From the IMG/VR virus record IMGVR_UViG_3300022748_000006: a DNA stretch of 53,607 bases. One strand, written 5' to 3'. Under the pieces are notes generated by a model that had not been told where the DNA came from, did not search any database, and saw nothing but the letters and a program-made list of their open reading frames with translations. Positions 570-49,998 of this stretch are shown piece after piece. The position numbers were made by a program, and so were the translations under genes. Source of the DNA: a virus. Positions within the stretch are counted from its first letter, which is position 1; every line of letters begins with the position of its first letter.

Positions 570-586
570 GTGGAGTCCGACTCCAC
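570..586. repeat. Palindrome GTGGAGTCCGACTCCAC (17/17)
   Basis: Perfect 17-bp inverted repeat starting 1 nt after the terL stop codon. Confidence 0.95.
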
Positions 587-603
587 TTTGCACCAACCTT
601 ACA

Positions 604-620
604 GTGGAGTCCGACTCCAC
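604..620. repeat. Palindrome GTGGAGTCCGACTCCAC (17/17)
   Basis: Second perfect copy, 34 bp (start to start) downstream of the first. Confidence 0.95.
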
Positions 621-637
621 CTGACTGGAACCTGACC

Positions 638-862
638 ATGAGACAGTTTGACCGTGAAGACCTGACAGCCGAGTACCTGAGAGGCTTGGCCGAGGGACGC
701 AAGCAAGGCCTGCAGTTGGCTGAGGACGCCTGCACAGCACTGGAGCGCCGCAAGTGGGAACTGATGCAAAAGACCCTGACGACGGGCGGCACAATGGCCA
801 CGGTCGGCCCATTGGAGTGCGTGCAGGCCATCCGTAGACTTGCGGCAGACCTGAAGGCATAA
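638..862 (+). CDS. Hypothetical protein (74 aa)
   Basis: ORF track 566..862 trimmed to the first ATG, because 566..637 is occupied by the two palindromes. No strong RBS. Confidence 0.5.
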   Translation: MRQFDREDLTAEYLRGLAEGRKQGLQLAEDACTALERRKWELMQKTLTTGGTMATVGPLECVQAIRRLAADLKA

Positions 863-889
863 TCGGGGCAACATCCCCCGAGGGCATCC

Positions 890-48123: not shown

Positions 48124-48124
48124 C

Positions 48125-48307
48125 ATGAACAAACTTCTTGAGGTGTTGGCTGTTGTGGCTGCAGCGCTGGGTGTTATTTGTCTAGCCATACTCATGGTAG
48201 ACCTGCTGTCTGCCAATCCACGAATGCATCGTGTGGACTGCTCACTGGCATCGTTCCATCCTGACTACACAACTAAACAGCGACAACAATGCCGAGGTGA
48301 AGCATGA
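48125..48307 (+). CDS. Small membrane protein (60 aa)
   Basis: ORF track 48035..48307 trimmed to MNKLLEVLAVVAAALGVICLAILMV. Ends in RGEA. Confidence 0.55.
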   Translation: MNKLLEVLAVVAAALGVICLAILMVDLLSANPRMHRVDCSLASFHPDYTTKQRQQCRGEA

Positions 48308-48528
48308 GAGACACCTTAGAGATGGCGCGTGAGGTTTACGGCGCACACACAGAGTGGAATGAAGCACAGCTTGAGCGCCTTAATGCTCTTGTTGAACTTA
48401 TTCGTGCTGATGAGCGTGAAGCGTGTGGAAAAATAATTGAAAGCAAGATTGAACAAGTCCGATTATGGAACAACGAGACATATCTTGTTGAATGCTTAAC
48501 CGCCATCCGAGCAAGAGGAAACAAATGA
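48304..48528 (+). CDS. Small protein of the ERExC..IRARG family
   Basis: 74 aa. RADEREACGKII .. TAIRARGNK. Confidence 0.65.
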   Translation: MRDTLEMAREVYGAHTEWNEAQLERLNALVELIRADEREACGKIIESKIEQVRLWNNETYLVECLTAIRARGNK

Positions 48529-49394
48529 CTGACAAACAACTACTGGAGCAGGCGCTGGCATTCATTGAAAAGACATCGACATATTTGCCGACATCTTTTG
48601 ATGAAGAAGGCTTGAGCATCCATGCCGCCATCCGAGCAAGACTGGAACAGCCAGCACCTGTGCAGGAGCCTGATGACGTTGAAATTGCGGCAGAGCAATC
48701 TGACAACTATGCCGCTTTCCATGCTGGTGTTAGGTTTGCAAGGACTCACACCACTCCACCCGCAGCACAGCGGCAATGGGTCGGTCTGAATAATTCAGAG
48801 CGTTTAAGTATTTGGGAAAAGGCAATGCTTGAAGATAACGGTAAAAACGCAAGTCTACAAAACCAACCTTTTGTTCACTATGCCCGAGCTATTGAGGCCA
48901 AGCTAAAGGAGAAGAACGCAGCACAGCCAGCTCCTGTGCAGGATGTTGACTGGAAGGATATGTACGAGAAGGAAAAGCGCCGCAGTGAAATGTGGATTGC
49001 CAAGTACGAGAAAGACATTGGGCCACTAGAGAAGGCAGTCCCCGCAGCACCTGTGCAGGCTCCTGCACTTGTCGTGTATGAAGGTGAGATTGCGAAATCC
49101 AATTTGCCCAAAGGCTTTACAGGGATGCTCTACACGCACCCAACTTCCGCAGCACCTGTGCAAGATGGTCGAGACTGGTCTTTGCTGGAGGCTACGCAAG
49201 AGTCATTGCGTGAGCACATGGCAGAAATCCAACAACTGAAAGCACAGCGGGAATGGGTTGGGCTGACGGATGAGGAATTGAAATCTGTGACCAGACTTGA
49301 AGATACGAAAAGCCATGCTGAGCTTGACCTTGGGAAAACATTCTGGGTTGGCGCACGATGGGCAGAAGCCAAACTCAAGGAGAAGAACACATGA
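48525..49394 (+). CDS. Repeat-containing protein (apparent fusion of two WVGL..AKLKEKN units)
   Basis: ORF track 48492..49394 trimmed to the ATGA-coupled MTDKQLL. Four (Q/A)(P/A)APVQ repeats, two QRxWVGL(N/T) units and two AKLKEKN motifs. Confidence 0.7.
   Translation: MTDKQLLEQALAFIEKTSTYLPTSFDEEGLSIHAAIRARLEQPAPVQEPDDVEIAAEQSDNYAAFHAGVRFARTHTTPPAAQRQWVGLNNSERLSIWEKAMLEDNGKNASLQNQPFVHYARAIEAKLKEKNAAQPAPVQDVDWKDMYEKEKRRSEMWIAKYEKDIGPLEKAVPAAPVQAPALVVYEGEIAKSNLPKGFTGMLYTHPTSAAPVQDGRDWSLLEATQESLREHMAEIQQLKAQREWVGLTDEELKSVTRLEDTKSHAELDLGKTFWVGARWAEAKLKEKNT
49371..49394. repeat. 24-bp direct repeat AAACTCAAGGAGAAGAACACATGA, copy 1
   Basis: Identical to 49523..49546. It encodes KLKEKNT-stop and carries the RBS and ATG of the next gene. 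Confidence 0.95.
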
Positions 49395-49546
49395 ACGGAC
49401 ACTGCGAAACATGCGATATCGAAAAGCAATGCGACTATGAGTACAAGCCCTGTGACTGTTGCAACTATCGCAAGTTCAAACCAAAACCGCCGCAGCCAGC
49501 GCAAGTCATCCCATTCCCGGTAAAACTCAAGGAGAAGAACACATGA
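49391..49546 (+). CDS. Cys-rich mini-protein (51 aa)
   Basis: ORF track 49358..49546 trimmed to MNGHCETCDIEKQCDYEYKPCDCCNY. Bounded by the two 24-bp repeats. Confidence 0.55.
   Translation: MNGHCETCDIEKQCDYEYKPCDCCNYRKFKPKPPQPAQVIPFPVKLKEKNT
49523..49546. repeat. 24-bp direct repeat, copy 2
   Basis: Identical to 49371..49394. Confidence 0.95.
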
Positions 49547-49998
49547 TCCACGAAGCCAAGCAGTTCTACATCGACTACATCACATCCAAGCCAAAGTCCC
49601 ACCGCACCGTGGAAAACGTGCTCATGCAGAAGTTCGCCGTGTCTGGAGTCCAGATCCGCAAGCTGCTACTGGAGGATGGCCACATCAAGGTGCTCAAGAA
49701 GGACAAAGGCAAGGACGGCAAGATTTTCCTGCGCGTGGCAGCCACAGGAAAGCCTCTACCGCCCCCAGAAGGAAGCCCCAACGCCTACCTCCCCACATGG
49801 GAAGACGGCACGCCGAAGTCCCGGGGCAACGCATTCGACTGGCGCAACTATGGCAGCAGCATCCTGAACGACAGAGACTTCCTGTTTTCTGAGACCATGA
49901 AAAAGAACTCAGCAGGCACCGGGACGGATGCACGCAAGCAATTCACCATCTACAGCCGGGCCAGACCATCGGCCCAGCGTGGAGTCGGACTCCAGTAG
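49543..49998 (+). CDS. Hypothetical protein (151 aa)
   Basis: ORF track 49459..49998 trimmed to MIHEAKQFY. Ends in RGVGLQ (palindrome). Confidence 0.65.
   Translation: MIHEAKQFYIDYITSKPKSHRTVENVLMQKFAVSGVQIRKLLLEDGHIKVLKKDKGKDGKIFLRVAATGKPLPPPEGSPNAYLPTWEDGTPKSRGNAFDWRNYGSSILNDRDFLFSETMKKNSAGTGTDARKQFTIYSRARPSAQRGVGLQ
49979..49995. repeat. Palindrome copy GTGGAGTCGGACTCCAg (16/17)
   Basis: In the last codons of 49543..49998. Confidence 0.9.

Follow-up and report, generated by a model that had tools for sequence, protein, structure and literature searches.

A dispersed palindrome and a ParB-like gene in a circular phage genome

The window analysed here, a 53,607-nt stretch of viral DNA, has identical first and last 127 nt, and the phage genome is therefore circular, with a length of 53,480 bp. 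The phage is lambdoid in type. Its genes run in the order YdaS/Cro-like, ParB-like, helicase, primase, RuvC-like, NinX, TerS and TerL, with the ParB-like gene in the position held by O in lambda. A small HTH protein (37972..38175, + strand), which matches YdaS_toxin/HTH_3 (Pfam PF15943, 6e-13) and not KorA, is encoded directly upstream of the 270-aa ParB-like protein (38307..39119, +; PHROG 1033 at 6e-18). An SF2 helicase (ResIII/DEAD + Helicase_C; 39116..40645, +) lies downstream, and a Toprim-type primase (41471..42397, +) belongs to the same early/replication operon. Searches of the window for RNA families (Rfam) and tRNAs returned none, and a sigma-70 promoter scan of the 1-20 kb interval was uninformative, with fewer matches than in shuffles. 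A repeat cluster at 48.5-49.4 kb was considered as a separate origin and rejected; its spacings are multiples of three within one ORF, which points to protein repeats.

Around this genome are scattered ten copies of the 17-bp palindrome GTGGAGTCSGACTCCAC. The first-pass annotation had reported these copies and proposed a count against shuffled controls; all ten were found where it had placed them, and dinucleotide shuffles gave an expectation of 0.04. The contexts it had described were also confirmed, namely a tandem pair beside TerL, a capsid-gene terminator stem, and seven copies inside six ORFs. Five copies match at 17/17 positions (570, 604, 10401, 38784 and 38835), four carry one mismatch (16708, 29263, 46888 and 49979), and the copy at 22776 carries two, both in outer positions. 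The family is sharply bounded, since the 13-nt core GGAGTCSGACTCC is intact in every copy and the window holds no extra core copies at up to two mismatches (1.0 expected).

The tandem pair consists of site 1 (570..586; GTGGAGTCCGACTCCAC), 1 nt past the TerL stop, and site 2 (604..620), 34 bp further on, start to start. Site 3 (10401..10417) is embedded in an intrinsic terminator after the capsid gene (9475-10389), with an 11-bp stem at 10397-10421, a U-run (T-run in DNA) and a folding energy of -20.5 kcal/mol. Copies inside ORFs are read either as V/LESDS (29263, 38784, 38835, 46888) or as GVGLQ (16708, 22776, 49979). Site 4 (16708..16724) falls at aa 123 of a tail-fibre-like ORF (16341-18725; GVGLQ), site 5 (22776..22792) at aa 11-16 of an endolysin ORF (22745-23347), 15 nt past the stop of the preceding ORF, and site 6 (29263..29279) at aa 612 of an 837-aa ORF (27430-29943; VESDS). 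Sites 7 (38784..38800; VESDST) and 8 (38835..38851), 51 bp apart, both lie within the ParB-like gene and encode the disordered linker of its product. Sites 9 (46888..46904) and 10 (49979..49995) supply the final codons of ORFs 46558-46911 and 49459-49998, respectively. For six of the ten copies a stop codon is no more than 35 nt away. The copies fall into eight clusters ∼3-10 kb apart around the circle, a spacing that had been noted for the copies at first pass, and the clusters are spaced more evenly than random (gap CV 0.33 vs 0.85, P=0.003). Sites are also evenly spaced in MW202545, the nearest GenBank relative (P=0.03), and the median gap between sites in relatives is 7.4 kb.

The ParB-like protein comprises a ParB/Srx N-domain (residues 1-90), an HTH (122-140), a disordered linker (163-191) and a coiled coil (196-269), and its AF2 model has a mean pLDDT of 80. 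Profile comparison with the PDB matched sulfiredoxin 6ky4 (7e-6), ParB 7o0n (8.5e-5) and Spo0J 1vz0, and PF02195 is precomputed on many homologs. The top Foldseek matches of the model were ParB (including ParB-CTP), Noc and KorB at a probability of 1.0, with alignments of 137-163 columns that span the NTD and DBD of CTD-truncated ParB, Noc and KorB. The HTH codons (38670..38726, +) specify helix 122-129, a turn and the recognition helix 133-140 (HTFVASVR), which H133 and T134 open in the model. Residues Q17, R19, G57, R60 and N92 are invariant among homologs and align with ParB Box I-III positions (Q17-F-R19, G57-F-H-R60 and N92, vs QPR, GERRxRA and ENxxR). Box II, however, reads GFHR rather than GERR, and an Ala aligns with the catalytic Glu of ParB Box III; NTP-dependent clamping thus stays a candidate activity only. 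The helicase is the constant partner, adjoining the ParB-like gene in 123 of ∼140 loci with room for it.

Site words and the recognition helix in related phages

The ParB-like protein has more than 1,500 homologs. In ∼90 of ∼160 fetched ParB-like loci, the linker-coding spot holds a palindrome, 13-25 bp long in about 100 related loci, whose sequence differs among phages; at least 15 classes of word were distinguished. Of the relative loci of 12-20 kb, only about half had the exact core a second time. Between sister words palindromy is kept through compensatory changes, and syntenic copies replace existing codons with length unchanged. Loci found by the DNA word alone yielded a ParB-like gene in 5 of 96 cases (four by profile HMM), a low figure because most of these loci are short pieces of larger contigs. 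An earlier description of this phage family and its sites was sought in the literature, with none among the papers searched.

MW202545 lacks the window's word and carries eight copies of TACTAGTCWGACTAGTA instead; two of them stand in tandem behind TerL, two more in tandem within the ParB-like gene, and another ends the homolog of ORF 46558. The first-pass annotation had looked to conservation at syntenic positions in relatives; with respect to MW202545 the word itself did not hold, but the positions did, filled by that phage's own word. The position of the TerL-proximal pair is kept as well in the close relative IMGVR_3300002307_000005, which has sites orthologous to sites 3 (capsid terminator) and 10. 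Other counterparts lie elsewhere: that of site 5 is ∼0.7 kb upstream in the close relative, and in MW202545 the homolog of the site 4 protein contains that phage's own word ∼60 codons off. Site 9 has an exactly syntenic counterpart in 13 of 16 relatives; each of these carries its locus-specific word, and together they cover seven HTH classes. The counterparts lie where the homolog of ORF 46558 encodes its C-terminus, 6-9 kb from the ParB-like gene and unlinked to it.

Across about 100 relatives, alignments indicate that the site word and two amino acids of the ParB-like protein vary together, and this co-switching was found family-wide at both linked and unlinked sites. Residue 133 tracks word positions 3-4 and residue 134 tracks position 6. 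Pro at residue 134 accompanies A at position 6 (30/30) and Ser or Thr accompanies G (36/37), and the switch repeats in six backgrounds, with H, Q, K, A, R or V at residue 133. The residue-134 code cuts across overall identity, since MW202545 and locus L130 are 82% identical with different words, while the window and L301 are 40% identical with the same base. Of all columns in the ParB-like alignment, H133 was best for positions 3-4 (0.89) and T134 for position 6 (1.0); the runners-up were linker residues that the word itself encodes. The adjacent helicase, used as a linkage control, reached only 0.69/0.82 in its best columns, and the best column of the upstream small HTH had a purity of only 0.71, loci L131 and L136 having identical small HTH proteins and different words.

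The in-gene site is only ∼100 bp from the HTH codons, and part of the correlation between word and helix could be linkage. Against linkage as its cause stand the independent recurrence of the switches, the distal site that is unlinked to the gene, and the failure of other linked columns to predict the word. Exceptions to the code are L153 and L315-320 (SHT), with 16-bp words of the form GTGGAA..., and L056 (SPP), with the window's word. In the words of L103/L106 (GTGGAGTTGTTGCCAC), which are found in both orientations, palindromy is confined to the outer 4 bp, and L145 has two word types.

The palindromes as candidate sites of the ParB-like protein

Based on this covariation and on the modelled fold, the 17-bp palindromes are in all probability the cognate sites at which the phage's own ParB-like protein binds DNA. 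That selection acts on the DNA word and not on the peptide, as the first-pass annotation had argued, is upheld by the covariation with the recognition helix in ∼100 relatives; the same pattern favours its suggestion of dispersed sites for a dimeric DNA-binding protein (parS-, NBS- or KorB-operator-like), with the ParB-like protein as the likely reader. We infer physical binding in a dimeric geometry, in which the protein would dimerise via its C-terminal coiled coil and the HTHs would read the two half-sites, residue 133 reading positions 3-4 and their mirror and residue 134 position 6 and its mirror. The ten sites, in eight even clusters, would allow nucleation of the ParB-like protein all round the 53.5-kb genome, and they would be placed where a fixed word harms least: between genes, in a terminator stem, at protein termini and in disordered linkers, that of the reader's own gene included. 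More speculatively, the protein may load and spread from each site as an NTP-dependent clamp in the manner of ParB, KorB and Noc and, together with the adjacent SF2 helicase, may serve to organise the replication of the phage chromosome or its state. As for the downstream role, a genome-wide loading platform for regulation, organisation or protection is quite conceivable, at a little under an even chance. That the protein organises replication, with the in-gene pair serving as the primary origin, is possible but somewhat doubtful, some other role is decidedly unlikely, and plasmid-like partition is improbable.

One alternative, which we consider unlikely, contests the role and leaves the binding-site claim in place. 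It casts the ParB-like protein as a replisome organiser in the style of lambda O or P22 gp18, with the in-gene palindromes as origin and the other sites as secondary origins or auxiliary helicase-loading sites. In lambdoid phages, site and DNA-binding domain co-vary. The gene order agrees with this view, the ParB-like gene standing after the cro-like gene and before the helicase function as O does; its sites fall in the linker-coding middle of the binder's own gene, as in P22 gp18, SPP1 G38P and lambda, where ori-lambda lies midway within O (PMC8508860). The in-gene site is also the most universally retained, and the frequency with which the helicase adjoins would fit. In Acidovorax phage AP1, a protein that shares only the C-terminal coiled coil has helicase and primase encoded after it, an arrangement suggestive of a C-domain that acts as helicase adaptor and a DNA-binding domain that can be swapped; a search of the AP1 gene for internal iterons gave nothing convincing. 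However, the phage genes hold one or two in-gene sites, many relatives having a single one, against the four-iteron array of lambda, and no AT-rich unwinding element (DUE) flanks the in-gene pair (GC 0.585-0.595). The fold (ParB/Srx + HTH) is unrelated to that of lambda O, searches found no homology to known phage initiator domains, and eight even clusters around the genome with a kept TerL tandem pair are unexpected of an origin.

Dispersed sites are also known from partition systems, as for SopB in N15, and the palindromes could be centromere sites for a plasmid-like, non-integrating prophage, as in P1 ParB-parS. A ParB-family protein with palindromic sites is what this would call for; close relatives occur only as ∼50-57 kb contigs, never in large bacterial contigs, and there was no integrase among the ORFs scanned. 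Yet the ParA-type deviant Walker A motif (KGGxGK[ST]) is absent from all ORFs of at least 100 aa, the ParB-like protein opens directly with its ParB/Srx domain and has no N-terminal ParA-interaction peptide, and the constant partner is a helicase rather than a ParA-type ATPase. With no ParA present, classical partition is unlikely, and we regard the centromere explanation as improbable.

It is more improbable still that the reader is another protein (the YdaS/Cro-like HTH, TerS or a host factor) and that the ParB-like correlation reflects hitch-hiking. Physical linkage of the in-gene site to the HTH codons and the tandem pair beside the terminase genes would be compatible with another reader, but neither the other ParB-like columns nor the linked helicase predict the word, co-switching recurs in six backgrounds and at an unlinked site, and the word is enriched in no bacterial genome. 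The YdaS/Cro-like protein was rejected as reader for its lack of covariation, given the low purity and the identical L131 and L136 proteins noted above.

The chance that the palindromes act at the RNA level, as terminators or as processing or stabilising hairpins, appears very slim. The first-pass annotation had listed RNA processing hairpins among the candidate roles, and the proximity of six copies to stop codons, the convincing capsid terminator and the compensatory changes that keep palindromy are all in keeping with it. But gene-end placement is equally explained by tolerance of a fixed word, and a U-run accompanies only one of the ten copies (10401), for which reason a general terminator role was discarded. 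Hairpin energy is not kept between sister words, weakening from -9.4 through -5.5 to -4.4 kcal/mol; words of the L103 type, which occur in both orientations, lack a palindromic centre and pair over 4 bp only; no Rfam match was found, and covariation with an HTH is unexpected for an RNA element.

Negligible probability attaches to methylation marks (paired GANTC, CcrM-type methylase), proposed at first pass, or to a selfish or host palindromic repeat (REP/MITE-like): each window copy does contain two GANTC sites, as had been observed, and the capsid gene is weakly nucleotide-similar to Caulobacter phages, but GANTC is at its expected frequency in the window (187 vs ∼202) and is missing from most sister words (e.g. 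TACTAGTCWGACTAGTA, TACTAGTC, TACTAATC, GTGTAATC and CCAGTTAAACTGG), insertion of 17 bp would break the reading frame and syntenic copies stand in place of existing codons, and, where a generic host repeat had been envisaged, 185,579 genomes gave 98 single-copy matches (∼70 expected by chance in 596 Gb), with enrichment in no genome.

Relation to known systems

Our best reading, drawn from sequence and modelled structure, is that the ParB-like protein and its candidate sites form a phage-borne, ParA-less counterpart of ParB-parS, Noc-NBS and KorB-OB. The OB core of the IncP plasmid RK2 is TTTAGCGGCTAAA, and KorB-CTP clamps act from distal OB sites (PMC11790492). Like KorB-OB, the phage system combines a ParB-family NTD, an HTH and a dimerisation domain in a protein encoded on the putatively bound replicon, with a short palindrome of odd length, centred on S, dispersed round the replicon in about a dozen copies, some far from promoters, and a small HTH protein gene directly upstream; KorB structures 8qa8 and 8qa9 were among the Foldseek matches. 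In contrast, the word (OB, TTTAGCSGCTAAA) and the recognition helix are not those of KorB-OB, the protein ends in a coiled-coil domain, Box II is GFHR, and the system resides on a phage. An IncC/ParA partner is missing, the constant partner being the SF2 helicase, the upstream HTH is YdaS/Cro-like and not KorA, and the sites are mostly in genes or gene ends rather than promoters. The resemblance to KorB-OB-KorA is architectural only.

Chromosomal ParB-parS and Noc-NBS share the fold, with ParB of M. xanthus, Caulobacter and B. subtilis together with Noc as the best structural matches, and likewise have palindromic multi-copy sites of ∼16 bp. The parS vs NBS preference of ParB and Noc depends on a few residues at the HTH-DNA interface (PMC7383237), and the same would hold for the specificity of the phage protein. 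The phage differs in lacking ParA, a ParA-binding peptide and a membrane-targeting helix, in sites that cover the whole replicon and not an origin region, and in a specificity that is hypervariable between closely related phages; parS and NBS, by comparison, are kept from species to species. In B. subtilis, spo0J itself contains a parS site. Cluster A mycobacteriophages provide a further comparison in their stoperators (L5 repressor), many dispersed copies of a short phage-specific word, often at gene ends, with word and HTH diversifying together between related phages. Unlike the present word, which is palindromic and whose probable reader is ParB-like, stoperators lack symmetry, depend on orientation and are bound by the immunity repressor.

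A phage orphan ParB-like protein that acts on phage DNA has been described for ParB-dependent T-dioxygenases (5mYOX), whose associated ParBs have no obvious DNA-binding domain and whose enzymes prefer trinucleotides (PMC13229309). MW202545 is annotated with a 2OG-Fe(II) oxygenase. The link was rejected for the window, where a homolog of this oxygenase is absent though the sites are kept, and whose ParB-like protein has an HTH in its AF2 model.

Orphan ParB-like genes are common in phages, and to our knowledge few have a known DNA target or role. In this family the target would be readable from the genome, because each ParB-like gene carries its own site in the linker-coding region. The more than 1,500 homologs and at least 15 words amount to a natural specificity series in which a recognition code for ParB-type HTH domains can be tested. 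Also open to test are how orthogonal protein-DNA pairs evolve when many unlinked sites change in concert, and what a ParB system that lacks ParA and is coupled to a helicase does during phage infection. Orthogonal protein/site pairs might also serve as tools. One tentative possibility is an undescribed, widespread phage module in which an orphan ParB-like protein and an SF2 helicase, with even loading sites, would label the entire phage chromosome as 'self' while organising its replication, or would protect it or relieve its repression. If so, a re-programmable two-residue-to-two-base code would keep co-infecting relatives orthogonal, and the module would represent a new functional class of the ParB fold, apart from partition, nucleoid occlusion and plasmid gene silencing. 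At the level of single residues, the code predicts that T134P or H133Q would shift preference toward GTGGAATC... or TACT... words.

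Palindromic sites and the genome that carries them

The first 127 nt of the window are identical to nt 53481-53607, an assembly overlap that makes the assembly circular; its true length is 53,480 bp, and the cut falls within terL (52610 to 569). In gene content the phage is lambdoid or P22-like, with packaging and structural genes (Sf6-type TerS, TerL, a large portal, capsid, an SU10-type adaptor and tail-fibre-like proteins), an endolysin, a leftward block (Tad2-like protein, SPFH protein, exonuclease) and a rightward early operon (YdaS/Cro-like HTH, ParB-like protein, SF2 helicase, Toprim primase, RuvC-like resolvase, NinX). 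A search of 50,697 GenBank phage records gave a single near relative, the metagenomic record MW202545; the ParB-like protein otherwise matched one gut phage and, by its C-terminal part only, Acidovorax phage AP1. Relatives were abundant in the IMG/VR and JGI metagenomes. Nucleotide matches to Caulobacter phage were confined to the capsid gene (73.5% identity).

A search with the 17-bp word GTGGAGTCSGACTCCAC, allowing ≤2 mismatches, recovered all ten copies reported in the first-pass annotation (570, 604, 10401, 16708, 22776, 29263, 38784, 38835, 46888 and 49979) and none besides, while 0.04 were expected from dinucleotide-preserving shuffles. The 13-nt core GGAGTCSGACTCC is perfect in 10/10 copies, and there were no further core copies at ≤2 mismatches in the window (1.0 expected), so the palindrome family is sharply bounded. 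The contexts and reading frames first assigned to the copies were correct on rechecking, and the spacing of roughly 3-10 kb held, with gaps between site clusters of 3.1-9.8 kb. When the tandem pairs (570/604, 3' of terL; 38784/38835, within the ParB-like gene) were merged, the eight resulting clusters were far more evenly spaced than random (gap CV 0.33 vs 0.85, P=0.003). The sites occupy places that tolerate an unchanging 17-bp word: six of the ten lie ≤35 nt from a stop codon and the remainder in linkers or variable regions. The copy at 10401 is part of a genuine terminator 3' of the capsid gene. Sites also turn over: the closest same-word relative has 5/8 site loci in common with the window, one shifted by ∼0.7 kb and two absent. 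The two tandem-pair loci are stable, unlike the other sites, where turnover is local.

Locus-specific words and the recognition helix

No copy of the window's core was found in MW202545 (∼60-80% amino-acid identity), which carries eight copies of another 17-bp palindrome, TACTAGTCWGACTAGTA. These comprise a tandem pair directly 3' of terL, a tandem pair in the ParB-like gene, and four single copies. Of these, one covers the final codons of the ORF 46558-46911 homolog, one lies N-terminally in the tail-fibre homolog (∼60 codons away from the site in the window), one is 3' of the portal gene, and one is elsewhere. Another relative, with 84% identity to the window in its ParB-like protein (tblastn; 77% in the family alignment), has the word GTGGAATCGGATTCCAC, which differs from the window's by a compensatory change in both arms. 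Based on 160 loci fetched by a search with the ParB-like protein alignment, a palindrome of 13-25 bp occurs in the DNA encoding the post-HTH linker in ∼90; at least 15 different words were present. In longer loci further copies of the locus's own word lie elsewhere, at a median gap of 7.4 kb; among loci of 12-20 kb, about half had a second exact copy of the core.

Covariation was assessed on 76 non-redundant HTH/word pairs, two of which were set aside because the palindrome detected there was a longer one unrelated to the real word. At the second recognition-helix residue (T134 in the window), Pro accompanied A at word position 6 in 30/30 cases and Ser or Thr accompanied G in 36/37 (Fisher 3e-18, without phylogeny correction), and this association recurred separately within the H, Q, K, A, R and V classes of the first residue (H133). 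The first residue tracked the outer half-site, with H corresponding to GTGG, Q/E to TACT, V/A to GTGT and R/K to xxGT. The code cuts across relatedness: the proteins of MW202545 and locus L130 are 82% identical and their words differ, whereas those of the window and locus L301 are 40% identical and the base is common. When all columns of the ParB-like alignment were scanned, H133 was best for positions 3-4 (purity 0.89) and T134 for position 6 (1.0); the next-best columns were linker residues encoded by the word itself, and the best columns of the linked helicase reached 0.69 and 0.82. The YdaS/Cro-like upstream protein was rejected as the reader (best columns 0.71; identical proteins in L131 and L136, different words).

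The objection of linkage applies least to the C-terminal site of the ORF 46558 homolog, which lies 6-9 kb away from the ParB-like gene. Exact synteny of this site held in 13 of 16 loci; it ends 3-6 nt short of the stop codon (overlapping it in one locus), and in each syntenic case has the word predicted by its own locus's helix (HT, HP, KP, AP, RS, QP, QS/ES). Unlinked sites that change in concert with two helix residues are as predicted for a trans-acting reader, and the change parallels the specificity residues of ParB and Noc defined by experiment (PMC7383237). The leading interpretation of the first-pass annotation, dispersed sites for a dimeric DNA-binding protein, gains support from this co-switching, and covariation and fold together make the ParB-like protein quite likely to be the reader of the palindromes.

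Several loci depart from the simple pattern. The word GTGGAGTTGTTGCCAC of L103 and L106 is palindromic in its outer 4 bp only, one half being the window half-site and the other different; L103 has 4-5 recurrences of it, in either orientation, and L106 two in-gene copies only, and in both it is an asymmetric site for a protein with an SHT helix start, as in the window. Locus L145 (IMGVR_UViG_3300025387_000029) has two repeated 16-mers, GTGGTAACGTTACCAC in the ParB-like gene and GTGGAGTTGTTGCCAC three times elsewhere, for which a second reader or relaxed specificity are possibilities; L147 (3300025838_000138) has the in-gene word only. Four exact copies of the window's 17-mer occur in IMGVR_UViG_3300033067_000423 (L002, L023, L041, L070; 24.7 kb, GC 0.67, unrelated to the window), with no ParB-like gene on its assembled part. 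In two other unrelated phages (L056 and L171) the window's word lies inside a distant ParB-like gene; the helix start of L056, SPP, is an exception to the code.

The ParB-like protein and its possible roles

The 270-aa product of ORF 38307-39119 (+) matched PHROG 1033 ('ParB-like partition protein'), and the family profile matched sulfiredoxin, ParB and Spo0J among solved structures. The predicted structure (AF2, mean pLDDT 80) comprises a ParB/Srx N-domain, an HTH with its recognition helix at residues 133-140 (HTFVASVR), a disordered linker and a long C-terminal coiled coil, with CTP-bound ParB, Noc and KorB as top Foldseek matches. The linker (163-191) coincides exactly with the translation of both in-gene palindromes, each giving VESDST. 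Invariant Q17, R19, G57, R60 and N92 fall at positions corresponding to Boxes I-III of ParB and thereby suggest that the nucleotide pocket may be functional. Box II is GFHR, however, and an Ala aligns with the Glu of ParB Box III; clamp-type spreading from the sites is therefore plausible rather than established.

In the cultured phage AP1 (OM049504, L504 3422-6638) a 274-aa 'plasmid replication/partition related protein' precedes a helicase and a primase. Its similarity to the window's protein is limited to the C-terminal coiled coil (57% identity over 65 aa), suggesting a conserved helicase-adaptor C-domain and a swappable DNA-binding N-domain.

The window thus has a ParB-fold HTH protein and sharply defined, evenly spaced palindromes whose words co-evolve with the recognition helix of that protein. 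We infer that a coiled-coil dimer of the ParB-like protein binds each palindrome, and an even spacing of ∼7 kb would suit coverage of the entire genome from several points of loading. The downstream function we infer is tied to replication, given the SF2 helicase directly 3' of the ParB-like gene (123 of ∼140 loci) and the position of the gene, that of lambda O, with sites in its own linker-coding middle. Ori-lambda likewise lies within O (PMC8508860), and these features also speak for the less likely, simple reading of the in-gene sites as a replication origin; lambda O and its origin are the closest known system by gene position and site-in-own-gene arrangement. Arguing against an origin are the presence of only one or two in-gene sites, with no iteron array, the absence of an AT-rich flank, and the seven further site clusters. 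Classical partition is unlikely, as no ParA was found when ORFs of ≥100 aa in the window were scanned for its deviant Walker A motif.

Two other candidate roles from the first-pass annotation were rejected as general ones. Methylation marks are disfavored because most sister words lack GANTC, whose frequency in the window is as expected. For an RNA element, an Rfam search gave no match, hairpins become progressively less stable from word to word (-9.4, -5.5 and -4.4 kcal/mol), and L103/L106-type words pair only their outer 4 bp, yet occur in both orientations. The generic host repeat that had been raised against the sites is dismissed, with 98 single-copy exact 17-mer matches in unrelated taxa (185,579 genomes) and ∼70 expected by chance in 596 Gb.

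A ParB-dependent T-dioxygenase system was likewise set aside; no homolog of the oxygenase is encoded in the window, and the ParBs of that system have no DNA-binding domain. MW202545 (L097 4986-5627) has an annotated 2OG-Fe(II) oxygenase, absent from the window, that could be relevant to the published ParB-dependent T-dioxygenases and is not needed for the site system.

Comparison with known systems and further genome features

By architecture, the closest known system is KorB-OB of RK2, in which a ParB-family protein acts at a distance by CTP-dependent sliding (PMC11790492). KorB-OB has a dozen dispersed odd-length palindromes with central S and a small HTH upstream, which the window's arrangement resembles; the window has a different word and no KorA. 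ParB and Noc are closest by fold, and the window differs from canonical ParABS in having no ParA. By genome-wide dispersal in a phage, the nearest are the L5 stoperators, oriented sites dispersed round the phage genome, whereas the window's site is palindromic. The system fails the defining features of each, and no prior description of the phage family or its sites was found in the literature searched. We regard it as an orphan phage ParB-like system, coupled to a helicase, whose cognate sites are dispersed and also embedded in its own gene and whose specificity code can be read.

Within the leftward early block, the Tad2-like protein (Thoeris anti-defence 2 domain; 34525-34995 (-), 156 aa, Pfam 3.9e-23) adjoins the SPFH/Band-7 protein (35003-35926, 1.6e-32). 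An LPD23 'large polyvalent protein' domain (4.5e-11) was found in a 1003-aa protein (890-3901 (+)) between terL and the portal gene. ORF 48492-49394 (+), 300 aa and without family match, has a ∼30-nt unit four times, each ending CAGCACCTGTGCAGG; the spacings are multiples of 3, indicating protein repeats. Copies of CCGCCATCCGAGCAAGA lie at 48500 and 48625 and a variant of it at 41090, and the distant locus L178 has three copies of the similar CATCCGAGCAAGGGG. A duplicated 24-mer, AAACTCAAGGAGAAGAACACATGA (RBS plus start), is found at 49371 and again at 49523. Lastly, a sharp AT-rich island (44400-44800, GC 0.385-0.445 vs ∼0.55) lies inside ORF 44316-44867, which has weak endonuclease VII-like PHROG matches and may be a recently acquired gene.
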